This document shows positions 1 through 27,303 of a stretch of DNA of 64,000 nucleotides, piece by piece (the first letter of the stretch is position 1; the number at the start of each line of letters is the position of its first letter). Under the pieces are notes generated by a model. That model was not told the DNA's origin. It searched no databases and saw nothing but the letters and a program-made list of their open reading frames with translations. This stretch comes from Thermodesulfobacteriota bacterium (GTDB taxonomy: Bacteria > Desulfobacterota > BSN033 > UBA1163), in assembly GCA_047519465.1 (NCBI GenBank), contig JAPVTA010000262.1:11220-75219 (forward strand), in the 5' to 3' direction. A program made the position numbers and the translations under genes.

Positions 1-441
1 GTCCCTGCGGCAACCATTTATCGTGAATTGGTTCCTTTCGGGGCGGCCTATCAAAACATCGTCGGCGATTTAGCCGTTTCACCCGAGGGCGTTTTGGCTC
101 ATCTTTCCGGCGGGAATTACGGAGCCGATGAAAATTTGCTTGGCTCGCCATTTCCCCTGGATGCGGCAATGCACGCCGCTTGTGTATGGGGACAACGTTT
201 CAGCGACATTGTCCCCTTTCCCGTAGGTTTTGAAAAGAGGTTGATTTATCAAAAGACAAAAAAAGGAGGCAGCTATCTTGGTCGGGTGGTGCCGGTGAGT
301 ATCGATTGTGAATCGCTCTTGTTCGATGCCTGGATTTATGATTTAAACGGTGTTATTTATGAAGCGATCAGCGGCATTAACATGCGGGATGTCACTCAAG
401 GCCGCCTGCGTCCGCCGCAATGGATTAAAGCAGAATTTTAA
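1..441 (+). CDS. 3' end of a gene running off the window start; hot-dog fold, PKS-type dehydratase-like C-terminal half (partial)
   Basis: Open frame from nt 1 to stop at 439-441; motifs PFPLDAAMHAA and VPFPVGFEKRL resemble the second hot-dog half of PKS/PUFA-type DH domains; no start in window. Confidence 0.4.
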   Translation, partial: VPAATIYRELVPFGAAYQNIVGDLAVSPEGVLAHLSGGNYGADENLLGSPFPLDAAMHAACVWGQRFSDIVPFPVGFEKRLIYQKTKKGGSYLGRVVPVSIDCESLLFDAWIYDLNGVIYEAISGINMRDVTQGRLRPPQWIKAEF

Positions 442-560
442 CCAGCGGGAAAAGCATTTTTGATTTGCCTTTTTGCTTGTTATGCGGGTTCCGTAGATTT
501 GGCTATTATTTTTTTGAACGAAACGTAAAGAGTGGATCATCTTGATCCTACTGGAATTTT

Positions 561-1769
561 TTGAAGAAAGGACTGGACGACGAGGAACTGATGGTGGATG
601 TTTTTGTAGGAGCCAGTAATGCGATCACATCCCTTGGCTTTTCCACAGCCAGGCATGTCGAGCAAGTAAAGGCCAATCAAATCGGTATCAGCATCTATCC
701 GGGCGGAGATCTCTACCCCACCGCTGTTCCGTTGTCTCTTGTTGATACTGGAGAATTACTTGATCTTTTCCAAAAATATCTTTGCAAGACAAGACCGGAT
801 CTTCAACCGGATTTGTTTACCCGCTCGGAAATGCTTCATATTCTGTCGATTTCAGATGTTTTGAAGAGCTCTGGAGTGGATATCACAGATCCTCGGACTC
901 TTATCATCCTGGCCACCCTTAAGGGCAATATGGACCTCATAGGGGGGAACAACCGCCTTCCGGCAATTGACCCAGACCGAGTTTATTTATGGAAATGGGG
1001 CGAGTTTCTCGGGTCTTTCTTTAATAGTTCGAACAAACCCCTTGTGGTTTCTAATGCCTGCATCTCCGGTGTGCTGGCGGTCCTCATTGGGTCACGGCTG
1101 ATCAAAGCCGGCAGGTATGATCACGTGATTGCGGCGGGAGGCGACATTTTGACGGAATTCGCGGTATCCGGCTTTCAATCGTTTCAGTCCCTCAGCCCCA
1201 AACCCTGTAAACCGTTCGATGCGGCCAGAGACGGACTCTCACTCGGCGAAGGCTGCGGTAGCATCGTGCTCAGTCGTGATCATTCATTGTGTGGTATACC
1301 GGAGAAGATCGTCGTTGCAGGAGGGTCTTGCACAAACGATGCCCATCACATCTCAGGCCCTCTCCGAACGGGCGAAAGCTTTTATGTTGCCATCCGCATA
1401 GCTCTGGGAGAGGCATCCTTAGACCCACTGGACATTGATTACATTTCTGCCCATGGAACGGGCACCGATTACTACGACGAGACGGAAGCGAAGGCCTTGT
1501 CATGGGCAGGCTTAGAAAAGGTTCCTGCTAACAGCTTTAAGGGTTATTTCGGACATACCCTCGGCGCAGCGGGAATCATTGAGTCAGCGCTTGCCATTGC
1601 TACAATGAGGAATAATGAATTATTCCGATCGGCAGGGTTTGAAAATCCCGGGACATCACAATCTATTAATATTTTAACGGATCATACGGTCAAAGAAGTG
1701 AATCATTGTTTGAAAACAGCCTCGGGTTTTGGAGGGTGCAATGCGGCGGTCGTCTATAAGAAAATTTAG
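561..1769 (+). CDS. beta-ketoacyl-ACP synthase (FabF/FabB-like elongating KS)
   Basis: 402 aa; Cys-His-His triad motifs NACISG, SAHGTGT, GHTLGAAG, C-terminal GFGGCNAAVV; TTG start at 561 (alternative ATG at 591). Confidence 0.85.
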   Translation: MKKGLDDEELMVDVFVGASNAITSLGFSTARHVEQVKANQIGISIYPGGDLYPTAVPLSLVDTGELLDLFQKYLCKTRPDLQPDLFTRSEMLHILSISDVLKSSGVDITDPRTLIILATLKGNMDLIGGNNRLPAIDPDRVYLWKWGEFLGSFFNSSNKPLVVSNACISGVLAVLIGSRLIKAGRYDHVIAAGGDILTEFAVSGFQSFQSLSPKPCKPFDAARDGLSLGEGCGSIVLSRDHSLCGIPEKIVVAGGSCTNDAHHISGPLRTGESFYVAIRIALGEASLDPLDIDYISAHGTGTDYYDETEAKALSWAGLEKVPANSFKGYFGHTLGAAGIIESALAIATMRNNELFRSAGFENPGTSQSINILTDHTVKEVNHCLKTASGFGGCNAAVVYKKI

Positions 1770-1807
1770 ATTGAGTCTGTCCATAGACTAAGGTTTTCAT
1801 AAGAAGT

Positions 1808-1877
1808 GTCATTCCGGCAAAAGCCGGAATCCAGTCTTTTCAATATCTCTGGATGCCGGATCAAGTCCGGCATGACG
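1808..1877. repeat. REP/MITE-like intergenic hairpin element, copy 1 (short form)
   Basis: GTCATTCCGGCAAAAGCCGGAATCCAGTCTTTT plus TGCCGGATCAAGTCCGGCA hairpin; shares modules with copies at 2839 and 4331. Confidence 0.7.
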
Positions 1878-1887
1878 GAAAAGACGC

Positions 1888-2541
1888 ATGGAATTATTGA
1901 TCACAAGATACATGAAGCTTCAAGACCATCGCGTGTCGCTCAACGGAATCGTTGAATATACATCGGAGGCGGAATCCGTGGATGCATTATTCCGTTCGGT
2001 TTACCGTTATTACAATATCGACTACCCGAAATTTTTCAAAATGGACAACCTCTGCAAGCTCGCTTTTCTGAGCGCCGAGATCTCACTCCAGGGTACTGAC
2101 GTTCTTCAGAAATATCCGGGTGAACAAATCGGGATCATTCTGGAAAATGCCAGCTCCTCACTGGAGTACGACCAAAGACACCAGGAATCCGTCCGTGACC
2201 GGAACCGGTACTTCCCGAGCCCATCCGTGTTCGTCTATACCATTCCAAATATCATGGTCGCCGAGATCGCCATACGGCATAAGGTGAAAGGGGAGAATAC
2301 CGTCTTCATCTCTGAGCAATTTGATCCAGAGTTGATTGATCACTATGTCTCTGAATTGTTCCGTAACCAACAGGTCAACTGTTGCCTCTCCGGCTGGATT
2401 GAATGTTATGTCAATCATTATCAGTCTTTTCTTTTCATTATTGAGCAGGAAGATAAGATCAAAAGATTTAAAGGACTTCAGGAATATGTTATTTTAAACA
2501 CCTTGAACATGGAAAAACTGTATAAAGGAAAATTCATATGA
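1888..2541 (+). CDS. small KS-N-terminal-like / chain-length-factor-like protein (inference)
   Basis: 217 aa, tightly linked between KS and ACP; the CLF-like call is contextual inference by analogy with small KS-N-terminal-like proteins of APE-type clusters, I did not identify a specific KS-like motif in it; translational coupling with ACP (stop overlaps ATG at 2538). Confidence 0.4.
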   Translation: MELLITRYMKLQDHRVSLNGIVEYTSEAESVDALFRSVYRYYNIDYPKFFKMDNLCKLAFLSAEISLQGTDVLQKYPGEQIGIILENASSSLEYDQRHQESVRDRNRYFPSPSVFVYTIPNIMVAEIAIRHKVKGENTVFISEQFDPELIDHYVSELFRNQQVNCCLSGWIECYVNHYQSFLFIIEQEDKIKRFKGLQEYVILNTLNMEKLYKGKFI

Positions 2542-2801
2542 TCGAAGATTTGATTCTCAAACTCAAGAAGGAGATTATTGAAGAACTGAATGTGGAAAAC
2601 ATCACACCGGAAGAGGTGGACGCGGACGCCCCTATTTTCGGGGAGGAGGGGTTAGGCCTTGATTCCATCGATGCGCTGGAGCTCGTGGTGTTACTGGATA
2701 AAAATTACGGTATCAAGATCCAGGCTTCCAAAGAAGGGCGTAAGATATTCCGCTCCGTAAAAACCATCGCCGAATATATACTGGAGCATCAAAAGAAATA
2801 A
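2538..2801 (+). CDS. acyl carrier protein
   Basis: 87 aa, phosphopantetheine attachment motif LGLDSIDALELV. Confidence 0.85.
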   Translation: MIEDLILKLKKEIIEELNVENITPEEVDADAPIFGEEGLGLDSIDALELVVLLDKNYGIKIQASKEGRKIFRSVKTIAEYILEHQKK

Positions 2802-2838
2802 AGCCAGTGTAGTGATTCAGACATTACTTTAGAGAGAC

Positions 2839-2950
2839 CGTCATTCCGGACCCGCCTTGCCGACCCGCAGGCGAGGCAGGCTTGATCCGGAATCCAGTCT
2901 TTTCACTTGGATTCCCGCCCCGTACTTGATACGGGGCGGGAATGACAACC
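2839..2950. repeat. REP/MITE-like intergenic hairpin element, copy 2
   Basis: Contains GTCATTCCGG…CCGGAATCCAGTCTTTTCACTTGGATTCCCGCCCCGTACTTGATACGGGGCGGGAATGACAACC; 3' 60 nt are the reverse complement of the 5' part of copy 3. Confidence 0.8.
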
Positions 2951-3000
2951 CTCATTATCATTGCAAAGAAATGTTAGATTCACTACACTAGTCACAGATT

Positions 3001-4263
3001 ATGAAGTTCACGCTCATTTACCCGAAATGGAAGAAACTCAGGGGCCAGACGGAATTCCACCTTCCTCCGCACGGCCCTGTTGTCTTTGCTGCGACACTGC
3101 CCAGAGACGTGGAAATTACTTTCACCGATGAGAACCTGGAGACAATCGATTTCAGCGATCGGGCAGATCTCATCGGGATCTCCATGATGCTGACGAGCCA
3201 ACTGAAACGGGGTTGGGAAATCGCGGAAGAGTACCGCAGGCGGGGCAGGAAGGTCATCTGCGGCGGCATTGCAACGATGCTTCATGCCGAAGAGACGTCC
3301 CTTCATGCCGATGCGGTCTTCCTCGGGGAGGCGGAAGGACGGATGGAGCAGGTCCTGGATGATTTTCGAAATAACCGACTCCGGAAGGTCTACGACTACC
3401 TGACAGACTTCCCACCCATCGCTTCCGTCGGCACGGCCCGGCGGGACATCCTGAAACGGCAGCTTTACTCCTACAAAGGAATCCAGATGGTCGATCTTTT
3501 TCATGCCTCGCGGGGGTGTCGGTTCGACTGCTACCCATGCTGCATGAGCTTCGTTGGAGGAAGGAAGTTCCGTCCCCGTCCTTTCGAGAAGGTGGTGGAG
3601 GAGCTGACGGCCATTGACAACAACCGTCTGTTTATCGTTGACAATTCTCTATCCCAGGATACGGCATGGCAAAAACAACTCTTCCGTGAGATGATTCCTT
3701 TGAAAAAAAAGTGGTGCTGCCACCCCATCGGGGACGACGATGAAGTCCTCAATCTGGCGGCCCAAGCCGGGGCGTGGTTCGTATATCATGCCATCTTCGA
3801 CACCTCGGACTTCATTCGCAACCGGGTCAAGCGCTATCACGACTTCGGGATCGGGGTGGAGGGAACAATCCTCCTGGGCCTCGACCGCCACACGGAGGAT
3901 TCTATCCACCGCCTCATCGATTTTCTCTTAGAGATAGAATTGGATCTGGCTGAGTTCACTGTATTGACCCCCTTTCCCCACACTCGCGCCTTTACGGACC
4001 TGCAGAGTGAGGGACGGATCCTTTCTTACAACTGGAACGACTATACCTGCGACCAGGTGGTGTTCCAGCCAAAAAAGATGAGCCCGGAGCGTCTTCAGCA
4101 GTTATACGATGAGGCATGGAAAATCTTCTATCGGGAGAAATCCCAACCCTACAGGATGTTCGAACTCTTCGAAAGGGTCATCGACAAGGAAATGGCGGAT
4201 GGTAGCTTCCAGCGGCAGCCTCGGACTCGGGGGAGCCGGAAGTTCGGCCGAGGCGAACCATGA
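3001..4263 (+). CDS. cobalamin(B12)-binding radical SAM enzyme
   Basis: 420 aa; N-terminal B12-binding Rossmann-like region; CxxxCxxC radical-SAM motif in SRGCRFDCYPCC. Confidence 0.85.
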   Translation: MKFTLIYPKWKKLRGQTEFHLPPHGPVVFAATLPRDVEITFTDENLETIDFSDRADLIGISMMLTSQLKRGWEIAEEYRRRGRKVICGGIATMLHAEETSLHADAVFLGEAEGRMEQVLDDFRNNRLRKVYDYLTDFPPIASVGTARRDILKRQLYSYKGIQMVDLFHASRGCRFDCYPCCMSFVGGRKFRPRPFEKVVEELTAIDNNRLFIVDNSLSQDTAWQKQLFREMIPLKKKWCCHPIGDDDEVLNLAAQAGAWFVYHAIFDTSDFIRNRVKRYHDFGIGVEGTILLGLDRHTEDSIHRLIDFLLEIELDLAEFTVLTPFPHTRAFTDLQSEGRILSYNWNDYTCDQVVFQPKKMSPERLQQLYDEAWKIFYREKSQPYRMFELFERVIDKEMADGSFQRQPRTRGSRKFGRGEP

Positions 4264-4330
4264 TGTTATGAAGGCTAAACGGAAACAGCAGTGTGGTTAA
4301 TCTAACAGTTTCTCTACAATAATAACGAAG

Positions 4331-4460
4331 GTTGTCATTCCCGCCCCGTATCAAGTACGGGGCGGGAAATCCAGAGTTGAAAGGACTGGATTTCCCCTTG
4401 TCAAGCACCCCGTGTCAAGCACGGGGCAGGCTAAGGCAGGCTTATCAAGTCCGGAAAGAC
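4331..4460. repeat. REP/MITE-like intergenic hairpin element, copy 3 (inverted relative to copy 2)
   Basis: GTTGTCATTCCCGCCCCGTATCAAGTACGGGGCGGGAAATCCAG… and GGCAGGCTTATCAAGTCCGG module. Confidence 0.8.
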
Positions 4461-4572
4461 AGTCTCGGTAAAGTAATTTTTGAATGACATCAGTAGCGAT
4501 TGGGAAAAATTGCTTAAGAGCTGGGGCAAAGATATCTCGCTGACTGTAATCACCTCATGGATGGTGTCATAA

Positions 4573-4815
4573 ATGCAAAAAGAGGAAGCCCTCAAAAAGG
4601 TATCCGAATATTTGGTGACACAATTTGAAATTCCTTCGGAAAAGATAAGTCCTGATGCAAACCTGTTTAAAGATCTCGAGATGGACAGTATTGATGCCTT
4701 AGATTGGTTCGCGGCAATGCAGTCGGAGATCGGTCTTCCTATTATCGAGAAAGAGCTCAAGAGGATAAGAACCGTTCAGGACGTGGTAGACTATGTGGTC
4801 CGGAATTTGAAATAA
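4573..4815 (+). CDS. acyl carrier protein (second copy)
   Basis: 80 aa, LEMDSIDALDW Ser-containing 4'-PP motif. Confidence 0.85.
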   Translation: MQKEEALKKVSEYLVTQFEIPSEKISPDANLFKDLEMDSIDALDWFAAMQSEIGLPIIEKELKRIRTVQDVVDYVVRNLK

Positions 4816-4816
4816 C

Positions 4817-5206
4817 ATGCCGATATCCCCCGAGAGATGGCTGCCTCTGAAGGATCTCCGGATGACCGCCGAAGGCCGTTGGGAATCCATGGTACGATTC
4901 GAACCCTCTTCGGAATGGTTCTCAGGTCACTTTGATGAATGCCCTCTGGTGCCTGGCGTGGCGCTCCTTGCCTTGGCGGCTGAAATGGTCAAAAGACAAG
5001 GTCTTGAGCAGGGACGTCGTATTGAGGTTTCCGGCTTTTCCAGGGTGAGGTTCAAGCAGTTAGTCTTTCCAGATGAGGAACTGCAAATCTCTGTGGCAGC
5101 CATGCCCTTAGGGCCCGAGGCAAAGCTTGATTTTCATATCACTTGCCGCGGAGATACAGTTGCCCAGGGTTTATTGAAAGCCCGTGAAGAAGTTCCCCGC
5201 CGATGA
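4817..5206 (+). CDS. FabA/FabZ-like 3-hydroxyacyl-ACP dehydratase (hot-dog)
   Basis: 129 aa; SGHFDECPLVPGVALLALAAEM matches FabZ/ApeI-type active-site region; start 1 nt after ACP stop. Confidence 0.75.
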   Translation: MPISPERWLPLKDLRMTAEGRWESMVRFEPSSEWFSGHFDECPLVPGVALLALAAEMVKRQGLEQGRRIEVSGFSRVRFKQLVFPDEELQISVAAMPLGPEAKLDFHITCRGDTVAQGLLKAREEVPRR

Positions 5207-5262
5207 AGAAGCGATAAAACAAATCCTGCGAAAACGGGTTCAGGTCGTCTGAGAGAGTAAGG

Positions 5263-6156
5263 ATGAAGGCTTTCGTTCACGAGACGCTCATCAGGGTTTC
5301 TCTTCTCCTGGGCTCCTGGCCCATCCGGTTCTTCGCCTGGTGGATCGCCACGGGATACTTCCTCTTTCTTTCTTCGAGGAGAAGATCAAGTATCTGCCTC
5401 TATGAAGTGATCTTTCCCGAAAAATCGCGATGGTATTATCTTTATTGCACCTGGCGCCAGTTTCACTCCTACGCAGCCACTTTTGCGGAGCGGATTGAGT
5501 TCGATAGAAATAAACGGCTAACCACCTCGACCCAGGGAAGGGAAAACCTAGTAGAGGTGGCCAGAAGAGGGAGAGGGGGAGTGATCCTCATGTCCCATCT
5601 GGGCAGTTTCGAGATTGCTGCAGGCGTGTTTCGAGAAGTGGGGCCCAAGCTTCTTTTGATCATGGGTGAAAAGGAAGCAAAACAGGTGGCCCGGGATCAG
5701 CGCGAAGCCATGAAGGCGCGAGGAATCCATATTCAGGTGGCCGCTGCAGGAGAGGAGTTTCCCTTCGCCGGGGTGGAGGCCATTCAGTTCGTGAGAGAAG
5801 GAGGCTTCGTCTCTGTCGCCGGTGACCTCGTTTGGACCGAACAGCGCTCCCGTCTGCCGGTAACTCTCTTCGGGCATGAGGTGGGCCTCTCCGCAGGTCC
5901 TCATCTCCTCGCCCTGGTTTCAAACGCGCCCCTCTTCACGATGTTTGCTTTTCGAGCTGAAAAAGGAAAATACCTGATCACGATGTCTTCTCCGAGGGAG
6001 GTGAAGGCAACATCCCGTTCTGAAAGAAGTGCGGCCCTCCAAGCGAGCGCACAGGCATACGCCAATGCTCTGGAAGAGATGGTGCGCCAGCACCCTTTCC
6101 AGTGGTACATCTTTGAGCCCTTCTTTGGACCCGTAGCGGCTGATACGAGGAAATAA
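5263..6156 (+). CDS. lysophospholipid/lipid A acyltransferase family (LpxL/HtrB-like)
   Basis: 297 aa; membrane N-terminus; C-terminal HPFQWYIFEPFF typical of LpxL-family (ApeD-like) acyltransferases. Confidence 0.7.
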   Translation: MKAFVHETLIRVSLLLGSWPIRFFAWWIATGYFLFLSSRRRSSICLYEVIFPEKSRWYYLYCTWRQFHSYAATFAERIEFDRNKRLTTSTQGRENLVEVARRGRGGVILMSHLGSFEIAAGVFREVGPKLLLIMGEKEAKQVARDQREAMKARGIHIQVAAAGEEFPFAGVEAIQFVREGGFVSVAGDLVWTEQRSRLPVTLFGHEVGLSAGPHLLALVSNAPLFTMFAFRAEKGKYLITMSSPREVKATSRSERSAALQASAQAYANALEEMVRQHPFQWYIFEPFFGPVAADTRK

Positions 6157-6202
6157 AGCTCCCCGCCCTAAAGGGCAGGGCTTTCCGGCAAGGTGGTTTG
6201 AT

Positions 6203-6250
6203 CATATTGTGCTCTTTGACCCCTTCCTGAAGGACAGGGCTTGCAGGGCA
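6203..6250. repeat. GC-rich about 48-nt dispersed repeat, copy 1 (CATATTGTGC…TTGACCCC…CTGAAGG…GGGCTTGC.GGG)
   Basis: About 80% identical to 51661-51709; a related shorter motif CCCCGCCCTAAAGGGCAGGGC lies at 6159-6185. Confidence 0.55.
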
Positions 6251-6339
6251 CTTTTCGGTCAAATCTGGGCTTTTTTAGCTTCGAATCCAGAAGAAGATTT
6301 GCGACGGCTCGGACGAGTGGAAAATAAGGAGTCATCTTA

Positions 6340-8511: not shown

Positions 8512-8663
8512 AAATAGGAAGGCTTTCCTCAGGTCAACAAATACCGTTAGAGTCCCCTATCCGGGACTTGACTATGTAACAGTAGCAAAGTTATTAAAAG
8601 GATGATTCATAAAGTTTGTGAAACCCAACGACTCCGAAACAGAGTGGTCAAATAGGATATAAC

Positions 8664-10403
8664 ATGTACGATAATCTGACGAAGGGCCTGGCCGCAGGCT
8701 ATGAAAGGATTGTGGCGTGGGCCGATATCCTTGACCGGATCAATGTCTATCCTGTACCCGACGGTGACACCGGCCGCAATCTTGTCATTACCCTGGGCGC
8801 CTGCAGGAATATCAACGAAAATCCCGATTCACTGAGCCGAGAGATCCTGCTTTCGGCCAGGGGTAATTCCGGAAACATTGCTGCCGGTTTTTTTGCAGGG
8901 TTCCTCACCTGCAAGGACTTGTCGTCTCTTCCCCTATCCGCCGAGGCCGGCCGTAATCTCGCGTACCGAGCTGTTCCCAACCCTCAACAAGGAACCATGA
9001 TCTCTCTGTTTGATACCCTGGTCGCATCTCTGAAGAAGACCCCTCCCGAAGAGACAGGGATATGGGTGGAATCAATAATCCATGACATGGAAGAGACGGT
9101 TAGGAATACCAGAGAACAATTGCTCGAACTCAGGGAGGCTGGGGTGGTTGATGCAGGAGCCCTCGGCATGCTCGTCTTCTTCGATCCTCTGTTGAATACT
9201 CTGGCTGGCCGCACGGTCAGGCCCTCTCTCTTCACGGATGATCTGAAGGATTCCTTCAACATCTCCGGAACGTGGCAGGACCGAAAATACCATGGCTACT
9301 GCCTTGACGTGTTGCTCAAGATCGAGCACGAAGAGCAGGAAGTTGTGAAGCATATCATGGATGTGGGAGAATCGTTGGTCGCCATGCCCCATGGCGAGTG
9401 CCTCAAAGTACACCTCCATGCCACGGACAGAGAGAGGGCAAGACAAGACCTCACCGCCGTCGGAGCCATCCTGAGCTGGGCCGAAGATGACCTTGCTCAG
9501 CAGACCTTCCGGTTCGGCGAAGCGAGAAAAAATCAGGCCATCCATATCATGACGGATGCGGCTGGCTCCATCACAAGGGATCTGGCTCAGAGCCTTGGAA
9601 TTACTCTCCTCAACAGTTATATCGCCATCGGGAATCGTTTTCTCCCTGAGACCTACGTAGATCCTTCCCAGCTCTTTGCCGCCATGAAGGCTGGAGCCAA
9701 AGTCTCTACGGGCCAAGCCTCAACCGTGGAGCGACAAGAGTGCTATAACAACGTCATGAAAATCCATGACCGCGTCCTCTATCTCTGTGTGGGCTCTTTC
9801 TACACCGGCAATTATGATGTGGCTATCAAATGGAAGGCTGAGAATGATCCCGATGACAGGATGACCATCATTGATACAGGGATCGCCTCGGGCAAGCTCG
9901 GTCTCGTAGCCAGGGCTGCTGCAGAACTCTCCCTCACTGTCAGCGACCCTTTAAAGGTCATCGCCTTCGCCAGGGGTGCGATTCAGAATGTACAGGAATA
10001 TATCTTCCTGGACACGCTGCAATTCTTAGCTGCCGGCGGTAGAATCTCAAAGACCAGTGCCTTTTTTGGCGATGTCCTTCGTATAAAACCGATCGTCAGT
10101 CCCTATCCTGACGGGGCTCGGAAGATCGGGGTAGTTAGAAACCTCAGAGATCAGGTAAAATTCGCCTTCCGTCGTCTTGAACAGGACATTTTAAAAGATC
10201 AAAGGGCGGCTCTGCTTCTCGAGTACTCAGACAACAAGGAGTGGCTTGAGGGGGAAATCAAACCGGAGATAGAGCGCAGGTTTCCTTTGATGCAAATCAT
10301 CGTACAACCTCTCTCCCTTACCACTGCTGCCCATGTGGGCCCGGGCTCCTGGGGCATGGCCTTTCTCAAAGAAGACTCCCAAAAAGGCGACCCATATGTA
10401 TGA
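8664..10403 (+). CDS. FakA-like fatty-acid kinase (DAK2 domain + DegV-like C-terminal domain)
   Basis: 579 aa; N-terminal INVYPVPDGDTGRNL matches DAK2 domain of FakA/YloV; C-terminal half DegV-like. Confidence 0.7.
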   Translation: MYDNLTKGLAAGYERIVAWADILDRINVYPVPDGDTGRNLVITLGACRNINENPDSLSREILLSARGNSGNIAAGFFAGFLTCKDLSSLPLSAEAGRNLAYRAVPNPQQGTMISLFDTLVASLKKTPPEETGIWVESIIHDMEETVRNTREQLLELREAGVVDAGALGMLVFFDPLLNTLAGRTVRPSLFTDDLKDSFNISGTWQDRKYHGYCLDVLLKIEHEEQEVVKHIMDVGESLVAMPHGECLKVHLHATDRERARQDLTAVGAILSWAEDDLAQQTFRFGEARKNQAIHIMTDAAGSITRDLAQSLGITLLNSYIAIGNRFLPETYVDPSQLFAAMKAGAKVSTGQASTVERQECYNNVMKIHDRVLYLCVGSFYTGNYDVAIKWKAENDPDDRMTIIDTGIASGKLGLVARAAAELSLTVSDPLKVIAFARGAIQNVQEYIFLDTLQFLAAGGRISKTSAFFGDVLRIKPIVSPYPDGARKIGVVRNLRDQVKFAFRRLEQDILKDQRAALLLEYSDNKEWLEGEIKPEIERRFPLMQIIVQPLSLTTAAHVGPGSWGMAFLKEDSQKGDPYV

Positions 10404-11604
10404 AAAAATCTTACGCGGCATGAAAGGTCTTCTGATGCTTGGACTTTTCGGCCTGTTTCTCCTCGGCATCTTCCTTGAATTACTGATCATTCTTCCGGTC
10501 CTCTGGGTCCTCAACAGAATCCTTGGGCCTAAGCATTACCGGATGCAGTGGACGATCCGTATCCTCGTCGGCCTGTGGCTCTTCTTCCTGAGAGCGTGCG
10601 GGCTACTCAAGGCGAGGGAGTTGAAAGGGAAGCCTTTCGATGGACCGTGTGTGATTGTTTCGAACCACCCCGGCCTCTTCGACGTGCTCTTCCTGATTCG
10701 GGATATCCCACGCATGTCTGTCATGGTCAAGCAATCCCTGGCAAGGAAGCTTCCCCTCGGCCCTGTCTTTCGCTCTGCAGGGTATGTCCTCTCCCCTGAC
10801 TTCGAGCAGAGGGGACCGTTCCAGTCCCTGGATGAGGCTATCGAGAAGATCGACATGGGGTACAAGTTCATGATCTTTCCTGAGGCCACTCGATCCCCTA
10901 AAGGAGACCTGGGCAGGTTCAGCGCCGGCCCCTTCATGCTTGCAAGGCTATCGAATGTCCCATTGCAGCCGGTGTTTGTCAGAAACGATCCACCTTTTCT
11001 CCCGAAGGAAGACAAATGGTACTTTCCTCCCTCCCGGGTCTCGACCCTTGAGATCGAATTCTGGGAGCCGACGGCCCCTCCGCAAGCAGGACAGGAGCGG
11101 CAGTTTGCCAGGGATCTCGAGGCTCGGTACAGGGAGGCGTTGGGCTTAACCTCTAACCAACTCTTTCCAGCTGAACCTTTGATCCCGCATCGTCTTGGCA
11201 TGAGGCTCATAGACCGGGTGAAGAGACCGACCTGGAACGCTTTGCAGGCTGAGACGATTGTTACTGAGGAATGGCCCTTGTACAACAACGGAGAGGTAAG
11301 TTCCATCCTATGTATTGAACTGGCCGCCCAAGCCATCTCTGCCCTGAGCACATGGCGTCGAGGTAAAGGGGCTGGACCGCGGGTCGGATTGCTCGTTGGC
11401 ATCAAAGAAGCGGAATTCTCAAGGTCGAGCGTTCCTGTAGGGACCAGACTCCACATCGAGATTGAGGAGCTTTCGCACGTTGGGGACTATGCCGTGTTTG
11501 AAGGCAAAGTAAGATCAGATTCGGACTCCTTGTGTAAAATCATTATCCAGGTGATGGAACCTGAAGAGACCCTATCGAACCTAAAGACCAGACAGAGAAT
11601 CTAA
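10396..11604 (+). CDS. PlsC-family acyltransferase fused to C-terminal hot-dog domain
   Basis: N-terminal TM helices; NHxxxxD motif (VSNHPGLFD), FPEATRS motif; C-terminal ~130 aa hot-dog-like; ATG overlaps FakA-like stop (ATGTATGA). Confidence 0.75.
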   Translation: MYEKILRGMKGLLMLGLFGLFLLGIFLELLIILPVLWVLNRILGPKHYRMQWTIRILVGLWLFFLRACGLLKARELKGKPFDGPCVIVSNHPGLFDVLFLIRDIPRMSVMVKQSLARKLPLGPVFRSAGYVLSPDFEQRGPFQSLDEAIEKIDMGYKFMIFPEATRSPKGDLGRFSAGPFMLARLSNVPLQPVFVRNDPPFLPKEDKWYFPPSRVSTLEIEFWEPTAPPQAGQERQFARDLEARYREALGLTSNQLFPAEPLIPHRLGMRLIDRVKRPTWNALQAETIVTEEWPLYNNGEVSSILCIELAAQAISALSTWRRGKGAGPRVGLLVGIKEAEFSRSSVPVGTRLHIEIEELSHVGDYAVFEGKVRSDSDSLCKIIIQVMEPEETLSNLKTRQRI

Positions 11605-11630
11605 CCCTGGGAGAAAGAGAGGGAGAATCG

Positions 11631-12365
11631 ATGCCTACGCTGTCTAAACAGATTGCCCTCGTGACGGGCGGGGGCCGGGGAATTGGACGCGCGATCTGCC
11701 TGGAGCTGGCAAAGAACGGCTGTTACGTGATTATCAATTTCCGCTCCAACACAAAGGCCGCTGAAGAGACCCTGGGGTTGATCCATCAAGTTGGAGGAAA
11801 GGGTGAGATCGTCCGTTTCGACGTCGCCAATCAGGAAGAAACTGAGCGAAACATCGAAACCCTCCTGACACGCCATGATGCGATCGATATTCTGGTAAAC
11901 AATGCAGGAGAAACTGCGGACGGTCTTTTTGTCTTGATGCCTCCCGACGAATGGGTGAAAGTGCTCAACACCTCCTTGCAAGGATTCTACAATGTGACGA
12001 AACCCGTTCTGATGAAGATGGTCAACAGAAAGCATGGTTTTATTGTTGCCATCTCTTCTGTGTCTGCAAGGCTCGGCCACCGTGGTCAGACAAATTACTC
12101 GGCAGCCAAGGCAGGTCTTGAAGGAGCCTGTCGATCCCTTGCCTCGGAGGTTGCTCGTCTTGGTATTCGGGTCAATGTCGTGGCGCCGGGCTTGATTGAA
12201 ACGGAGATGCTTCAGGCTGTTCCCAGGGATATGATAAAACAGATCATACCGATGGGCCGAGTAGGCCTGCCTGAAGAGGTAGCCAAGGTGGTTCGTTTCT
12301 TGTGCTCTGAGGATGCCTCTTACATTACCGGCCAGGTCATATCCGTCAATGGGGGAATGATCTAA
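11631..12365 (+). CDS. 3-oxoacyl-ACP reductase (FabG-like SDR)
   Basis: 244 aa; TGGGRGIGRAI NAD(P)-binding motif, Y-x3-K catalytic pair (NYSAAKAG). Confidence 0.9.
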   Translation: MPTLSKQIALVTGGGRGIGRAICLELAKNGCYVIINFRSNTKAAEETLGLIHQVGGKGEIVRFDVANQEETERNIETLLTRHDAIDILVNNAGETADGLFVLMPPDEWVKVLNTSLQGFYNVTKPVLMKMVNRKHGFIVAISSVSARLGHRGQTNYSAAKAGLEGACRSLASEVARLGIRVNVVAPGLIETEMLQAVPRDMIKQIIPMGRVGLPEEVAKVVRFLCSEDASYITGQVISVNGGMI

Positions 12366-12369
12366 AAAA

Positions 12370-12397
12370 GTAGGGAACGCATATATGCGTTCCCTAC
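12370..12397. promoter_or_regulatory. perfect 28-bp palindrome GTAGGGAACGCATAT/ATGCGTTCCCTAC at FabG-like stop / LolA-like start
   Basis: Exact inverted repeat with no spacer; right arm contains the LolA-like ATG (12385). Confidence 0.6.
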
Positions 12398-13023
12398 TGA
12401 AGGGATTGGCATTGAAAGGATTCCTTTCCATCACACTAGTAATAATAGCGGGAGTTTTCTTCGTCGAAACAGCATCGGCCCAGGATTGGACCTCTCTGAA
12501 AGAAACTTTCAGAAACATTCGATCCGTGAAGGCGGATTTCCTCCAGAAGAGATACCTCAAAATCCTAATAAGACCTCTCCTGTCTGAGGGAAAGCTCTTT
12601 TTTTATATCCCTGATTCTCTGAGATGGGAGTACCTCAACCCGCTGCGAAGCGTGATGCTGGAAAAGGGGAGTACCGTCCAGGTTTACAACTTCTCTGAGG
12701 GTACGTGGAAGCCAGAGATGACGCAGGCTGTTGAGGCAAGGCGGATGGTACTTGCGGAAGTCAGTCATTGGTTTCAGGGCCGTTTCGATGAAAGCACCGC
12801 ATTCAAGCACCTTTATTCTCCCGGACCTCCTGCGCGAGTCACGATGGTTCCTGGGGAAGGGATCAACAGGTTTATCCAGCGGATTGAGATCGTTCTGTCT
12901 GTGAGGCCAGGGGTCATTGATCGGGTGGAGATAGAGGAACCCGGAGGCTCCCGGACCACAATTGAATTCAGGAACGTGGAGATCAATTCCAGCTTCCCTT
13001 CAGAGGTCTTCGAGAAACCATGA
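12385..13023 (+). CDS. LolA-like outer-membrane lipoprotein carrier family protein
   Basis: 212 aa with signal peptide (…FFVETASA/QD); LolA-like size and context (APE-type clusters carry LolA-like genes). Confidence 0.55.
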   Translation: MRSLLKGLALKGFLSITLVIIAGVFFVETASAQDWTSLKETFRNIRSVKADFLQKRYLKILIRPLLSEGKLFFYIPDSLRWEYLNPLRSVMLEKGSTVQVYNFSEGTWKPEMTQAVEARRMVLAEVSHWFQGRFDESTAFKHLYSPGPPARVTMVPGEGINRFIQRIEIVLSVRPGVIDRVEIEEPGGSRTTIEFRNVEINSSFPSEVFEKP

Positions 13024-13676
13024 TTCGCGCCAAGGCCCTTGATGTCTGTCTTCTGGGATTTCTTGTCCTCTGCGTCGGGTGTGCCTCTCCATCCAAGAAA
13101 ACCCTGGGCCCGGGCTCACCGGATGACGTGCCAGGCTGTTATGCCGTTTTTCCGGGAGAGCCCTGGGAGTCGGTGCATCGGATTGAGGCCACCGTCAGAG
13201 GAGAAGGTTCTTCCTCGCTGCTTGGAGTCACCAAAGGCGAACCATCGGAGCGAAGGCTTCAGAGCCTTTTGCTCACCCCCGAAGGGTTCATCCTGTTCGA
13301 TGCGGAACTCTCGGGGGATGGAATCGCTGTCCGAAAGGCAATGGCTCCCTTCGATTCACCGGCTTTTGCCAGAGGGCTGATGGAGGATGTGTCTCTCCTC
13401 TTTCTCCCTCCGCAGGGCAAGCCCGCCGCATGGGCGAAGGAAACGGATGGAACGATGATTTGCAACTGGGAAAACCATGACGATTCCCATACCGAGATTT
13501 CGGGATCGATGGAGAGCGGCTGGCGAATCCTCCGCCAGAACAAAAATGGGAAGGTCATAAAGGAAATCGTCTTGAACGGACCTTTTGTCAACGGTCTTGC
13601 GTCGCGCATCGAGCTCCGCACATTCAGACCGGCGCCGTACAGGCTCAGGATGACTTTGGTCCAACCGTCTCCTTAA
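13020..13676 (+). CDS. lipoprotein of unknown function (LolB/DUF3261-like position)
   Basis: 218 aa; lipobox LVLCVGCAS; overlaps LolA-like stop (ATGA). Confidence 0.45.
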   Translation: MIRAKALDVCLLGFLVLCVGCASPSKKTLGPGSPDDVPGCYAVFPGEPWESVHRIEATVRGEGSSSLLGVTKGEPSERRLQSLLLTPEGFILFDAELSGDGIAVRKAMAPFDSPAFARGLMEDVSLLFLPPQGKPAAWAKETDGTMICNWENHDDSHTEISGSMESGWRILRQNKNGKVIKEIVLNGPFVNGLASRIELRTFRPAPYRLRMTLVQPSP

Positions 13677-13752
13677 ACGATTTTTGTTGAAGTGGCCGTT
13701 CAAAATGAGTAGGGTTTTATATTTGGGGGTTCCCGTGAAACTTTTGCCGACT

Positions 13753-15537
13753 ATGAACAGGTTGCTCGTCATTGTTTTGCCATTCATCCTTCTTTCTCTG
13801 GGCTGCAGCTCCCTGCATTCAGATCAACCGATACTCAAGAAAGGAGATTTTCCGGGTGCGGTAACGACGCTCGATACAATCATCAGGAATAACCTGAAGC
13901 GCTACCGGATCCACGGCGCGGCCGTCGCCCTGGTGCAGGACGGTAGGGTGATCTTCTCGCAATGCTATGGGTATGCGGATACCCAGAAAAAAGTTCCCAT
14001 TACAGAAGACACCTATTTTATGGCCGGTTCCCTGACAAAATCCTTTACGGCGCTGGCCGTCTTGAAATTAATAGAAGAGGGTAAAGTCGATCCTCATGCC
14101 GATATAAAAAAATATATCCCACATTTCTCCATCAGACACCTTTATGACGGTGAAGTCCCTATCACCGTAAACCATCTTCTCACGCATACGTCGGGACTCA
14201 TGATTGATTATTATGTTCGCTTTACCCGTGAAAGAAAACATCCCAACGCTGATCTTCTTTCGCAATTACGGAATGAATACCTCTGCTTTAAGCCGGGTTC
14301 TGCCTATAAGTATTCGAATATCGGATACCGGCTTCTCGGCATGATTATCGAACAAGTAACCGGTGAGCGGTTTGAAGACTATCTCGAAAAAGAAGTTTTC
14401 AAGCCTCTCGGCCTGAACAACTCCTTTTTCGATTATACGGCTGATATGGCCCCTCACATGTCTAAGGGCCACAATGGGGATGCGGAAACCTCCCGGATTG
14501 ACAACGAAGACACGTCTGCCAGCGGCCTGTTCAGCACGCTGAAGGATCTGACCGCATTCTTGAAATTTCTCTCCTCCAGAGCCGGCCAGTTACCCGGGGG
14601 AATCAAGAATGACAAAATCATCGATCTGATCATAAAAAACGCCGATCCCACGATCGATACGTTTTATGACAGCAAAAACATATACTCTTCCGGATGGTAT
14701 TTGAATTCCTATCAGTTCAACGGCATCCGTGAGGTACTCTCCAGCAGCGGAAATATCAACGGCTTTTCTACGGCGATAACTTACATCCCTGAAGAAAGAC
14801 TCGGAATAGTCCTCCTGACGAATTCATCTGTCGGATGGAAAGCCGACATGGACATCATCGCTCGAGGCCTTCTCGGCATAATAGATGTTTTCCGAGACGC
14901 CGGAACCCAGGAGCCTGATCGTAAAAATCAAAAGGATATTAAGCCAACGGAGGAATACGAGTCGTTGTGCGGACGGTATGTGGGTTTTGGTCCCATTGTC
15001 GATATTTTTAAGAAGAAAAATAAATTATACGCAAAGTTTAAAGGCCCTGCGGCTCGGCTTATTCCTGAAGGCGATGGCGTTTTCAAGCCGGTCCTCCGAA
15101 TCCTCTTTCTGGATATTGATGTGGCGAGATTTACCGACTATGAAAGGATACGGTTCAGGTTCAGCAAGAATCGGCAAGGCGAGAAATTCCTGTCTATGGA
15201 AGCACATGTGGCTGAATCGACGTTTCCAATACCCCTTCATTTTACTCAAAAAAACAATATCCCGAAGGCCTACAGCCGCTATTATGGAACCTGGGCTTTA
15301 GATAAAAATGAGACTTACCCGAATATCCTGAAGCTCTACCTGCCGACGGATCGATTAACTTTTTTTGAAAAAGATGGGTGGCCCATGATTCGAATAAATA
15401 CCTGGATGGGTGAAGGACTGCTGCTGCTCGAACCTTTGTCAGAAAACCTGGCCCGCATCGCCGGCTCGGGAGAAATTGTTTCAATGAATGATGATATAGT
15501 GAATTATATCGGGCTCCGTTTTAAGAAAGTCCGCTGA
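13753..15537 (+). CDS. beta-lactamase-family serine hydrolase (PBP/esterase type) lipoprotein with C-terminal extension
   Basis: SxxK motif SLTKSF, YxN motif YSNIGY; lipobox LSLGCSS; start chosen at MNRLL (ORF opens at 13684). Confidence 0.7.
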   Translation: MNRLLVIVLPFILLSLGCSSLHSDQPILKKGDFPGAVTTLDTIIRNNLKRYRIHGAAVALVQDGRVIFSQCYGYADTQKKVPITEDTYFMAGSLTKSFTALAVLKLIEEGKVDPHADIKKYIPHFSIRHLYDGEVPITVNHLLTHTSGLMIDYYVRFTRERKHPNADLLSQLRNEYLCFKPGSAYKYSNIGYRLLGMIIEQVTGERFEDYLEKEVFKPLGLNNSFFDYTADMAPHMSKGHNGDAETSRIDNEDTSASGLFSTLKDLTAFLKFLSSRAGQLPGGIKNDKIIDLIIKNADPTIDTFYDSKNIYSSGWYLNSYQFNGIREVLSSSGNINGFSTAITYIPEERLGIVLLTNSSVGWKADMDIIARGLLGIIDVFRDAGTQEPDRKNQKDIKPTEEYESLCGRYVGFGPIVDIFKKKNKLYAKFKGPAARLIPEGDGVFKPVLRILFLDIDVARFTDYERIRFRFSKNRQGEKFLSMEAHVAESTFPIPLHFTQKNNIPKAYSRYYGTWALDKNETYPNILKLYLPTDRLTFFEKDGWPMIRINTWMGEGLLLLEPLSENLARIAGSGEIVSMNDDIVNYIGLRFKKVR

Positions 15538-15755
15538 AGCGGCCCGAAGACACCAAATCTTCAATCAACGTTAATTATCCTATTTCGCTCTTTCTTCCTG
15601 TAAGCGTGTTTTTCTAACTTCATCTTACAATGTAACATTTCAAATGGAAGTCATTAGGGCAAAGAAATCCATTCTTTTCTCTTTCTTAAGTACTCATATT
15701 GCTTGAATTCATAGCAGGACATAGTTATTTTTAATTTAAAGGGGGAACAAGACCA

Positions 15756-16031
15756 ATGGGAAAGGAGATTAACCCGATGGCACTATATATGGACATCCAC
15801 AGGAATGTTGGAGAAATCCCAAAAGAGAAGATTGATGAAGCTCATAAAAAAGACCTTGCGGTGCAGGGGAAGCATGGAGTTCAGATCACCGACTTTTGGC
15901 ACAGCGAAAAAGATGGGGCTGTTTTCTGCCTTGCCGAAGCTCCCAGCAAGGAGGCCTTTGGAGCCGTCCACCGTGAGGCTCATGGCTTGGAAGCCGACGA
16001 GATTTTCGAAGTTATGGAAGGCCAGAAATAG
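15756..16031 (+). CDS. small DUF4242-like protein
   Basis: 91 aa, MALYMDIH… resembles DUF4242 family; AT-rich promoter region upstream. Confidence 0.35.
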   Translation: MGKEINPMALYMDIHRNVGEIPKEKIDEAHKKDLAVQGKHGVQITDFWHSEKDGAVFCLAEAPSKEAFGAVHREAHGLEADEIFEVMEGQK

Positions 16032-17473: not shown

Positions 17474-17680
17474 TATTCTTTTCGATAATCGTTTCCAATC
17501 TGGAAACGAAAATCTGATTAGTTCCCGGAGATTCCAAAACCGTTGAGGATCTGAGCAAAATCCCTTTTACCACAAGAGATGGAAAGCCAGAGAAGGATCC
17601 ACCTCAGGGGTCTCATGCGTAGGTCTTATAGATTAAAGCTATGAACTTTTGAAATTCCAACTTGATGATTAGGGAGATTT

Positions 17681-19654: not shown

Positions 19655-19655
19655 G

Positions 19656-19828: not shown

Positions 19829-19867
19829 GATCTGGCCTTGGAATCTCATCAGTTTAAGGACTGTAAC

Positions 19868-27299: not shown

Positions 27300-27303
27300 A
27301 GGC

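Follow-up and report, generated by a model that had tools for sequence, protein, structure and literature searches.

The first 15,537 nucleotides (nt) of a 64,000-nt stretch of DNA from a Thermodesulfobacteriota bacterium (contig JAPVTA010000262.1, positions 11,220 to 75,219; this entire stretch is referred to as the window) carry a gene cluster that resembles those for aryl polyene (APE) biosynthesis. We estimate the probability to be approximately 0.6 that this block is the larger part of an aryl polyene lipid (APEL)-type pathway in which conjugated polyenoyl chains would be made, anchored on a glycerol-phosphate/amino-sugar unit, and exported as a lipid to the outer membrane. The individual steps of the pathway are less certain than this overall assignment. 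Judged by their predicted products, the core genes map one-to-one onto APE/APEL parts, and the recurrence of the gene set in dozens of independent genomes indicates more than a chance assembly.

Organization and extent of the cluster

The cluster comprises 15 open reading frames (ORFs) spanning positions 1-15537. According to the ORF list, all are on the + strand and are packed with short gaps or overlaps, as described in an initial annotation made prior to any database search. Gene-by-gene scans against Pfam and NCBIfam recovered the domains named in that annotation and agreed with its view of an APE-like type II polyketide synthase (PKS)/fatty-acid synthase (FAS) architecture with genes for lipid anchoring and Lol-like export. 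The domain calls held across the block, with that for the product of 1888-2541 being weakly supported. Rfam and tRNA scans of the window yielded no matches. Promoter and terminator scans returned counts close to those expected by chance, and no operon boundary was marked.

An exact-sequence look-up returned no record of the window's own ketosynthase (KS) and radical S-adenosylmethionine (SAM) proteins. Comparisons were made through relatives that are 93-95% identical; homologues at this level of identity are from uncultured Thermodesulfobacteriota. Loci in related genomes are designated by L numbers. Using L006 and L146, which have the same gene order as the window, together with L001, we reconstructed the left flank of the cluster. 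By this reconstruction, the block is the larger, right-hand part, approximately two thirds, of a ~25-kb cluster truncated by the window's left edge. In L006 and L146, the flank contains, outermost first, a divergent gene for an MMPL-methyltransferase fusion (1030 aa), a polysaccharide deacetylase gene, a third acyl carrier protein (ACP) gene, two small radical-SAM genes, two active KS genes, a 4HBT thioesterase gene, and a double-hotdog dehydratase gene. The 1030-residue fusion is encoded divergently upstream in L146, L001, and L086, with 88-92% identity among the three. Based on its presence in the left flank of the closest relatives, the window's copy of this gene very probably lies just past the left edge.

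No MMPL/RND transporter (ApeM) was found among the window ORFs scanned, no ammonia-lyase was found in the window, and no aromatic starter enzyme was found in the window or in the left flank of L146/L006. The sole AMP-binding gene of the window, at 17681-19654, encodes a predicted acetoacetate-CoA ligase (811 bits; cut-off 639). These results bear out the earlier statement that the window lacks an adenylating starter enzyme, an ammonia-lyase, and an MMPL exporter. The initial annotation also asked whether such genes lie left of nt 1: in the closest relatives, an MMPL gene is found there, fused to a methyltransferase gene (L146, L001), but the L146/L006 flank has no starter enzyme.

Chain-building genes

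The cluster is predicted to encode two KS/chain-length factor (CLF) systems, specifically a KS (561-1769) with a tentative CLF partner (1888-2541) and a fused KS-CLF (6340-8511), together with two ACPs, one ketoreductase (KR), and three dehydratases. No enoyl reductase domain was detected in any cluster ORF. With a KR and dehydratases but no enoyl reductase, the gene set fits polyenes rather than saturated chains.

The KS encoded at 561-1769 (+) contains the N- and C-terminal KS domains of Pfam and an intact Cys-His-His triad, and its N-terminal 150 residues are divergent. The 723-residue fusion encoded at 6340-8511 (+) contains a KS and a Ketoacyl-synt_2 domain (PF13723, 54 bits). On alignment, its KS half has Cys-His-His, and its CLF half has Asp at the Cys position and neither His. 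The closest NCBIfam model was PRK09185 for both proteins, at 199 bits for the stand-alone KS and 318 bits for the fusion, each under the cut-off of 407. Both KS genes also scored under the FabF and FabB cut-offs. The best PDB matches were again common to the two: 9s5h_B and ApeO (6qsp). We suspect that 9s5h is the anammox FabF2/FabFmut heterodimer (bioRxiv 10.64898/2026.05.19.726425). An identical 723-residue KS-CLF architecture is present in L156 and L027.

The small protein encoded at 1888-2541 (+) is tentatively a second CLF, of a truncated KS-like form. FabF residues 65-157 matched it at E = 5e-4. In an alignment made to check catalytic residues, it has Gln at the Cys position. When a 23-sequence profile of the protein was compared with the PDB, FabF and the Iga12 CLF alone were returned (E = 0.35-0.6). 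An hhalign comparison with the CLF half of the fusion covered 39 columns at E = 0.008 and a probability of just 5%. Some of its homologues are named 3-oxoacyl-ACP synthase at NCBI. The single-sequence AlphaFold model was unusable (predicted local distance difference test, pLDDT, of 31). The initial call of a small CLF-like protein is thus tentative: the protein belongs to no Pfam family, and its similarity to FabF is weak and confined to the N-terminal half of the latter.

The two ACPs are encoded on either side of the radical-SAM gene. The first, at 2538-2801 (+), is of the PRK09184 type (PF00550; PRK09184, 78 bits against 70), and its first 4 nt are shared with the gene before it. The second, at 4573-4815 (+), matched PF00550 at 41.8 bits and PRK05350 at 80 bits (cut-off 65). 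Of the predicted dehydratases, the one at 1-441 (+) is the C-terminal half of a double-hotdog, PKS-type enzyme cut by the window edge (PF14765, PS-DH, 27.6 bits). The corresponding C-terminal half of the 288-residue product of L006:6920-7786, a protein that also has a PKS_DH_N domain, shows 88% identity to it. The second, at 4817-5206 (+), is a single-hotdog, ApeI/FabZ-like protein (FabA-like, 25 bits; ApeI-like, 17.9 bits, below the 28.5 cut-off). Its best PDB matches were 3esi and ApeI (6qsr, E = 4e-4), and its L001 homologue has PF22818 in precomputed annotation, as the L001 ApeP-like homologue has PF22817. The third is part of an acyltransferase fusion described below. Finally, the 3-oxoacyl-ACP reductase encoded at 11631-12365 (+) is FabG/ApeQ/FlxB-like, scoring 306.7 bits for NF004200 (cut-off 273) and 298 bits for FlxB, below 340; as it passes the FabG cut-off, it was not counted as an enoyl reductase.

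A kinase fused to its predicted ligand-binding partner

The gene at 8664-10403 (+) encodes a single chain in which the FakA N-terminal (Dak2) and middle domains are fused to a DegV/FakB domain (PF02734, PF21645, and PF02645). The first two scored 55.5 and 31.3 bits, both over their cut-offs, and the DegV model TIGR00762 scored 148.8 bits against 99.7. The YloV model (positions 5-338) reaches no further than residue ~316 of the protein, and the FakA model no further than residue ~254. Structural databases gave a FakA_N match for residues 12-186 (8vip, 7rm7; E = 4e-24) and a full-length match to DegV/FakB structures for residues 293-569 (1pzx, 2dt8). The motifs of both parts are intact: PVPDGDTG in the kinase, and T-x-Q-x-S, GGRISK, and H-x-GPG in DegV. 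From this predicted arrangement, the FakB-docking C-terminal domain of FakA is replaced by the DegV ligand-binding partner itself. The protein had been described as a FakA-like kinase, which is correct for the N-terminal and middle domains; the C-terminal part is a genuine DegV/FakB domain. All 120 of the 120 best homologues have the kinase-fusion architecture and are annotated merely as 'DegV family protein'.

The fusion shares with the FakA/FakB system of Firmicutes the Dak2 domain with its PVPDGDTG Mg/ATP motif, the FakA middle domain, and the carboxylate-binding motifs of DegV/FakB. In Firmicutes, however, these reside in separate subunits and FakA has a FakB docking domain, whereas the window protein is one polypeptide with DegV in place of that domain. 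Moreover, the Firmicutes system functions in the scavenging of host fatty acids, whereas the window gene is embedded in a specialized lipid cluster of a didermic anaerobe. Among 55 copies of the kinase gene, the downstream neighbor was a GT2 glycosyltransferase gene in 24 and a PlsC gene in 17, and the upstream neighbor was a thioesterase gene in 16, an ammonia-lyase gene in 13, and an LpxL-like gene in 13.

This setting bears on an alternative role for the fusion, as a starter activator in place of ApeH. In that role, its substrate would be a fatty acid or p-coumarate, and the resulting acyl-phosphate would pass to an ACP and be extended by the KS/CLF pairs instead of supplying the anchor. 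The window has no adenylating enzyme for starters, and in many relatives the kinase gene comes after the ammonia-lyase gene, either directly or one thioesterase gene apart. PlsX is known to interconvert acyl-phosphate and acyl-ACP. Nevertheless, no PlsX-like gene occurs in any cluster examined, many loci have the kinase fusion and an ApeH-like ligase together, and the downstream partner is nearly always GT2 or PlsC rather than KS or ACP. The kinase gene is also retained in variants of the cluster that lack KS genes. Based on these data, we consider a role in starter activation unlikely.

Anchoring and export genes

The predicted acyltransferases are of two types. The LpxL/HtrB-family protein encoded at 5263-6156 (+; PF03279, 53.6 bits) has an H-x4-E motif (HLGSFE), identified by eye. 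The ORF at 10333-11604 (+) encodes a PlsC-type (HX4D) acyltransferase with the motif NHPGLFD (PF01553, 58.7 bits) fused to an ApeP-like hotdog dehydratase (18.6 bits, below the 27 cut-off). Its start is likely the ATG at ~10396, which overlaps the stop of the kinase gene by 8 nt. When L001 and L006 were aligned over the junction, each proved to have two overlapping genes in different frames, one for the acyltransferase and one for the ApeP-like dehydratase. Similarly, L096, L102, and L116 gave two separate tblastn segments for the two proteins. Compared with L001 and L006, a 43-nt deletion (junction 11143-11175) takes away the stop of the first gene and the start of the second, resulting in an in-frame PlsC-ApeP fusion. 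As predicted from these alignments, the fusion is real but private to the window genome, and its halves probably correspond to ApeD and ApeP. The initial annotation had considered the protein non-canonical; this holds for the fusion, which is unusual, but each domain appears canonical.

Two genes are predicted to function in export. The first, at 12385-13023 (+), encodes a periplasmic LolA-like, ApeL-like carrier with a signal peptide (PF03548, 44.6 bits; LolA2_flexi, 75 bits, below cut-off). The second, at 13020-13676 (+), encodes a lipoprotein that is probably the LolB-like equivalent of ApeN: it has an N-terminal signal peptide with Cys, and its sole Pfam match is DUF3261 (E = 0.046). Both signal peptides were read from the sequence. 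The lipoprotein gene follows the LolA-like gene in 20-39 related loci. A perfect palindrome with a 13-bp stem (AGTAGGGAACGCATATATGCGTTCCCTACT) was observed at 12369-12398, covering the 20-nt gap at the junction of the KR and LolA-like genes and the first codons of the latter. The last gene of the block, at 13684-15537 (+), encodes a serine hydrolase lipoprotein of the beta-lactamase/penicillin-binding-protein family (PF00144, 231 bits). A gene of this type is found only in the closest relatives (L001-L006, L102), so it is probably not part of the core.

The radical-SAM enzyme

The gene at 3001-4263 (+) encodes a predicted radical-SAM enzyme with an N-terminal B12-binding-like Rossmann domain. 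Its Pfam and NCBIfam matches were weak: the B12-binding domain scored 33.2 bits (cut-off 32.1), and Radical_SAM scored 24.6 bits, under the cut-off of 29.5. The CxxxCxxC motif is formed by C173, C177, and C180. The earlier identification of a B12-radical-SAM enzyme therefore stands with respect to the motif and the radical-SAM/B12-like architecture; cobalamin dependence rests on a borderline Pfam match, and the Radical_SAM domain is under threshold. We also considered whether the protein was the TIGR04072 enzyme of the anammox 'ladderane' clusters; its score of 43.7 bits against a cut-off of 360 ruled this out.

In a genome scan, relatives of this enzyme were identified in at least 374 species-level genomes, with identities of 68-93% for the best 80. 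The latter are from Syntrophales, Smithellaceae, Desulfobacterales (Desulfosarcina widdelii PP31, which is in culture, among them), Desulfocapsaceae, and, in a few cases, Spirochaetota bins. Among 1.84 billion representatives clustered at 50% identity, just two full-length sequences exceeded 50% (68% and 52%), and the next were at 44% or less. The 52% relative (L156) is in the same kind of cluster, and a 39% relative is in an unrelated context. By these comparisons, the family is discrete and tightly conserved, and it occurs in such clusters wherever relatives of at least 52% identity had readable flanks. The median identity of the protein was 71%, versus medians of 30-61% for its neighbors.

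The radical-SAM gene adjoins ACP genes in the window clade, lying between the two in the window itself, and in L156; the same was observed in L013. Elsewhere, it adjoins lipoprotein and ammonia-lyase genes. From this proximity to ACP genes, in L156 as well as in the window clade, the enzyme probably acts on an ACP-bound chain, and the substrate is presumably an acyl- or polyenoyl-ACP. Methylation would be the likeliest reaction.

The structural comparisons raise a different possibility, in which the enzyme is an AprD4-like radical dehydratase, or catalyzes another rearrangement, on an amino-sugar head group or a hydroxylated intermediate rather than being a cobalamin methylase. AprD4 and the class B methylases MgmA, TsrM, and CysS share with it the N-terminal Rossmann (B12-like) domain and the CxxxCxxC radical-SAM barrel, but identity is at most 19%, and scores for the named families are far under their cut-offs. 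AprD4 (6fd2) was the only PDB sequence match (E = 1e-6) and ranked first by fold in a Foldseek search (E = 2e-12, TM 0.5). The borderline B12-binding score is compatible with such an enzyme, as is the amino-sugar head group implied by the deacetylase and the PpgS-like GT2 of the cluster family. Nevertheless, the sequence match is confined to residues 283-362 at 19% identity, and the model used in the search was mediocre (pLDDT 62, pTM 0.62). MgmA, TsrM, MiaB, and CysS followed in the fold ranking, the three methylases being close behind, and this modeled ranking cannot settle the chemistry. Finally, the adjoining genes are those for ACP, lipoprotein, or ammonia-lyase, never sugar-handling genes. 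We therefore regard the AprD4-like assignment as improbable.

Two copies of a palindrome-rich repeat element flank the radical-SAM gene, at 2803-2989 and, inverted, at 4290-4497. The copies (~190 nt; core ATTCCCGCCCCGTA...TACGGGGCGGGAAT) matched over 103 nt at 88% identity by blastn, and their 60-nt arms are 92% complementary. In L001, the corresponding gaps measure just 16 and ~100 nt, indicating that each copy was inserted in the window genome alone. The element looks like a miniature inverted-repeat transposable element. A third copy is present in L127 (19036-19178), between the KR and LolA genes.

Comparative anatomy of related loci

The frequency of each gene type was calculated from 34 loci, from different orders, with full 10-kb flanks around the radical-SAM gene. 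The most widely shared were KS (65%), an ApeH-like AMP-ligase (65%), KR (~65%, by tblastn), the FakA-DegV fusion, the lipoprotein, and GT2 (62% each). These were followed by the 4HBT thioesterase (53%), the LolA-like carrier and an aromatic-amino-acid ammonia-lyase (47% each), the LpxL-like acyltransferase and the MMPL-methyltransferase (29% each), and PlsC (26%). A PlsY-type glycerol-3-phosphate acyltransferase was present in 7 of the 34 (21%) and lies beside the deacetylase in L133 and L140; a PlsY gene of L140 is at 11248-11772. Related loci also have further B12 radical-SAM paralogues and phytoene-desaturase-like genes. The commonest gene order was ApeP-KR-LolA-lipoprotein-radical SAM-ammonia-lyase-thioesterase-FakA/DegV-GT2.

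A tyrosine/aromatic ammonia-lyase and an ApeH-like ligase occur both in Syntrophales-type relatives and in L156. The presence of these genes in distant relatives suggests that the family as a whole is aryl-polyene-like and that the window represents a variant without starter genes. The most divergent member, L156, encodes two ACPs, the 723-residue KS-CLF fusion, an amine oxidase, an ammonia-lyase, a thioesterase, and a Dak2-DegV protein. It also has a divergent module with two genes each for radical-SAM enzymes and KSs and one each for a thioesterase and a dehydratase. Two further fusions were noted among the relatives. In L156, the gene at 2223-3773 (-) encodes a double-hotdog dehydratase fused to a 4'-phosphopantetheinyl transferase domain. 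In L044, the ORF at 7848-9839 (663 aa, from a greedy ORF call) encodes an apparent ammonia-lyase with a C-terminal 4HBT thioesterase, residues 535-661 being 49% identical to a thioesterase encoded elsewhere in the window (40313-40750).

The cluster of the window's clade is modular among close relatives. L118, a member of the clade, has no radical-SAM gene. In the sequence read on the cluster side of the deacetylase gene, L096, L102, L116, L127, and L129 have an ACP gene and an AMP-ligase gene where the KS genes and the radical-SAM gene would be, and retain those for the deacetylase, two ACPs, ApeI, LpxL, FakA-DegV, PlsC, ApeP, KR, LolA, and the lipoprotein. The retention of the anchoring and export genes in these KS-less variants suggests that the platform is able to take chains that are made or activated differently.

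Satellite locus and other features of the window

Several genes at 39.1-43.0 kb may, according to their sequence matches, be detached parts of the pathway. The gene at 39110-39901 (-) encodes an Sfp/EntD-type phosphopantetheinyl transferase (PF01648, PF17837; matches to EntD and HetI weak), which is possibly part of the satellite. The 4HBT/YbgC-type thioesterase encoded at 40313-40750 (+) is ApeK-like and 47-49% identical to the thioesterase of related clusters. It is followed by a gene at 40782-42017 (+) for a stand-alone KS with Cys-His-His, a possible ApeR equivalent (PRK09116, 427.5 bits, below 470). The GT2 glycosyltransferase encoded at 42231-42956 (-) is 54% identical to the GT2 encoded after the kinase gene in related clusters; its closest named family is PpgS (polyprenyl-phospho-GalNAc synthase), at a score far below the cut-off. 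A gene for an outer-membrane beta-barrel protein (-) closes the satellite stretch, 39110-43586, and a gene for a MalT/AfsR-like (STAND-type) regulator of 1075 aa (43995-47222) adjoins it.

To the right of the cluster are genes for a helix-turn-helix (HTH)-cupin regulator (16910-17473), the acetoacetate-CoA ligase, and an isochorismatase, all of which look unrelated to it. The ligase had been considered as an ApeH-like enzyme, as single-linkage clustering joined it with the ligases of relatives; the NCBIfam acetoacetate-CoA ligase call ruled this out. The G+C content is 0.42-0.45 at 14000-20000, versus ~0.52 within the cluster, in a region that spans the 3' half of the hydrolase gene, the HTH-cupin regulator gene, and the ligase gene. 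The window also contains two paralogous operons for Liv-type (branched-chain amino-acid-like) ATP-binding cassette importers, at 25024-29682 and 55070-59657. Each comprises genes for a periplasmic binding protein and two ATPases as well as permease-size ORFs, of which one, in the first operon, was confirmed by Pfam.

Comparison with characterized clusters

The APE gene table of E. coli is available (PMC8253772), and the product in Xenorhabdus is an APEL in which a glycerol-phosphate-N-acetylgalactosamine (GalNAc) backbone bears one saturated and one C26:5 conjugated acyl chain as well as an aryl polyene (bioRxiv 10.1101/2020.12.19.423268). In that pathway, the C26:5 chain is made on a second ACP and attached at sn-2 by ApeD, and ApeJ puts GalNAc on the phosphate and then the polyene on the sugar; export is by ApeM, ApeL, and ApeN (bioRxiv 10.1101/2020.12.19.423268). 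The window cluster shares with the APE/APEL clusters (E. coli CFT073; Xenorhabdus doucetiae apeA-R) and with flexirubin clusters KS and CLF genes, two ACPs, putative ApeI/ApeP-type dehydratases, a FabG-type KR, and the lack of an enoyl reductase. Also shared are a PlsC-type acyltransferase (ApeD) and an LpxL-type acyltransferase and GT2, which correspond to the two halves of ApeJ. The LolA-like (ApeL) and LolB-like (ApeN) genes are shared as well. When the relatives' flank and the satellite are counted, the likeness extends to the thioesterase (ApeK), MMPL (ApeM), and methyltransferase (ApeB) genes. The tyrosine/aromatic ammonia-lyase of the distant relatives, which also have the ApeH-like ligase, resembles FlxA of the flexirubin cluster.

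In contrast to APE clusters, the window variant has neither starter genes nor ApeG, one KS is fused to its CLF, and, in relatives, the methyltransferase is fused to the exporter. In addition, the cluster has a radical-SAM (B12-like) enzyme, the FakA-DegV kinase, a polysaccharide deacetylase, and a module of one ACP, two KSs, and two radical-SAM enzymes, with PlsY in some relatives. As the initial annotation noted, the genes for the radical-SAM and FakA-like proteins fall outside the canonical APE set. Finally, APE hosts are aerobes of the Proteobacteria and Bacteroidetes, whereas the window host is a strict anaerobe of the Thermodesulfobacteriota.

The second point of comparison is the ladderane clusters of anammox bacteria. 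In 2009, related deltaproteobacterial clusters were compared with these, and gene types common to Kuenenia, Desulfotalea psychrophila, Geobacter, and Pelobacter were listed (Rattray et al., PMC2649909). antiSMASH reports 'ladderane' clusters in Desulfobacterota (PMC9902471). In a 2026 review, the list of ketoacyl lipids believed to undergo modification by radical-SAM enzymes contains only ladderanes and the Jaw5 product (PMC13459092). Our literature search found no link of DegV/FakA to aryl-polyene clusters and nothing specific on aryl polyenes and radical SAM in Desulfobacterota. The initial description of an undescribed system was thus too strong: the kind of system is known, in APE/APEL clusters and in the radical-SAM-bearing relatives from anaerobes noted in 2009, and it is the product and enzymes of this variant that are uncharacterized.

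Like the window cluster, the anammox clusters (Kuenenia kuste3603-3608, 3335-3352, and 2802-2805) and their Desulfotalea counterparts combine FAS-like genes with several for radical-SAM enzymes, and they also encode KS/CLF-like pairs, a polysaccharide-deacetylase-like protein, a glycosyltransferase, and a membrane protein for lipid transport. These likenesses favor a pathway related to that of ladderanes, or one for anaerobic polyunsaturated fatty acids or hydrocarbons ('extended FASII'; Rattray et al. 2009), in which the KS paralogues and the radical-SAM enzymes would produce an unusual cyclized, cross-linked, or polyunsaturated chain of the bulk membrane rather than an APE-like pigment lipid of the outer membrane. 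Specifically, the left-flank module of L006/L146 matches, by gene type, the Kuenenia and D. psychrophila lists, and the phytoene-desaturase-like and F390-synthetase-like genes of relatives are on the same list (PMC2649909). The two small radical-SAM genes present in L006, L146, and L156 are possible counterparts of the pair Kuste3342/3343 (DP1853/DP1855). Moreover, in Desulfosarcina widdelii (L079), a true TIGR04072 paralogue (382.5 bits against 360) is encoded ~3.3 kb from the 3001-4263-type gene, and the 'ladderane' label of antiSMASH points in the same direction, as does the top PDB match of both KS genes, 9s5h_B, if it is the anammox heterodimer. However, the anammox clusters carry a TIGR04072 enzyme (Kuste2803 type), and the window enzyme, by the score given above, is of another family. 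The first 15.5 kb contain no TIGR04072 gene, and the scanned ORFs of the window included none for an amine oxidase. Lol-like and LpxL-like genes and the kinase fusion are features of the window that are not mentioned for the anammox clusters in PMC2649909. Anammox is performed by Kuenenia-type hosts and not by the window host, and D. psychrophila makes no ladderanes (PMC2649909). Together, the LolA/LolB-like, MMPL, LpxL-like, GT2, and ammonia-lyase genes favor an exported, anchored lipid of the APE type, and we consider a bulk-membrane product doubtful.

The weakest alternative, which the initial annotation named as one that would refute its reading and to which we attach virtually no weight, is that these are housekeeping genes of type II fatty-acid synthesis: KS, ACP, FabZ-like, and FabG-like genes are present, but the gene content contradicts it, with no fabD, fabH, fabI, plsX, or rpmF among the window ORFs scanned (most, not all, large ORFs), both KSs under the FabF/FabB cut-offs, CLF domains, Lol-like export and radical-SAM genes present, and a cluster that is patchy in distribution and modular among close relatives.

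Proposed pathway

In the APEL-type pathway that we propose, the two KS/CLF systems and two ACPs would make two conjugated chains. Considering that starter genes are lacking and that one CLF is likely of the Gln type, the chains probably begin by decarboxylation of malonyl-ACP and have no aryl head. Accordingly, we expect a polyene that lacks an aryl group and is similar to the C26:5 conjugated acyl chain of the Xenorhabdus APELs. The radical-SAM enzyme would tailor an ACP-bound intermediate in an oxygen-independent manner. FakA-DegV would bind a free carboxylic acid, either the product released by the thioesterase or an ordinary fatty acid, and phosphorylate it to an acyl-phosphate. This acyl-phosphate could feed the glycerolipid anchor via PlsY, where present, or via the translationally coupled PlsC-like enzyme; PlsY represents an enzyme class known to use acyl-phosphate (PMC5700162). 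The PpgS-like GT2 would put a hexosamine on the lipid phosphate, the deacetylase would free the amine, and the LpxL-like enzyme would add the second polyenoyl chain. Finally, the MMPL-methyltransferase, LolA-like, and LolB-like proteins would carry the lipid to the outer membrane.

Several observations weigh against this pathway. No cluster of this type has a known product. ApeH, ammonia-lyase, and ApeG are missing from the window and its close relatives, and the ApeI-like, ApeP-like, DUF3261, and CLF assignments are all below the family cut-offs. The GT2, the thioesterase, and the third KS are encoded 25 kb from the cluster and may be unrelated to it. We know of no PlsC-family enzyme that uses acyl-phosphate, and the window has no PlsY. 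The nearest solved relative of the radical-SAM enzyme is a diol dehydratase rather than a methylase, albeit by a weak model (pLDDT 62). Finally, L096, L102, L116, L127, and L129 have no KS in the ~10 kb of sequence covered on the downstream side of the deacetylase gene, and the chain in these genomes may come from elsewhere.

Implications

Radical-SAM-bearing, anaerobic relatives of APE clusters are common in Desulfobacterota genomes, and some are labeled 'ladderane' by mining tools. The usual position of the kinase gene between those for the thioesterase and GT2, PlsC, or PlsY suggests that a specialized acid is re-activated as an acyl-phosphate for its own lipid anchor. To our knowledge, no such re-activation logic has been described for natural-product lipidation.

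A more far-reaching proposal, which we consider quite unlikely, extends both features. In it, the radical-SAM family and the pair of small radical-SAM enzymes would catalyze C-C bond formation or skeletal chemistry on ACP-bound polyenes in non-anammox anaerobes, by cyclization, cross-linking, or methylation of unactivated carbons, and FakA-DegV would represent a new acyl-phosphate route that joins a natural-product acid to a glycerolipid. If true, the rigidified envelope lipids made by these clusters would form a new class, with a mechanism related to that of ladderanes. Desulfosarcina widdelii PP31 (L079; NZ_AP021875.1, around 2.89-2.91 Mb) carries the radical-SAM family and is in culture, and a solved product could clarify the roles of the shared genes in the anammox ladderane clusters.

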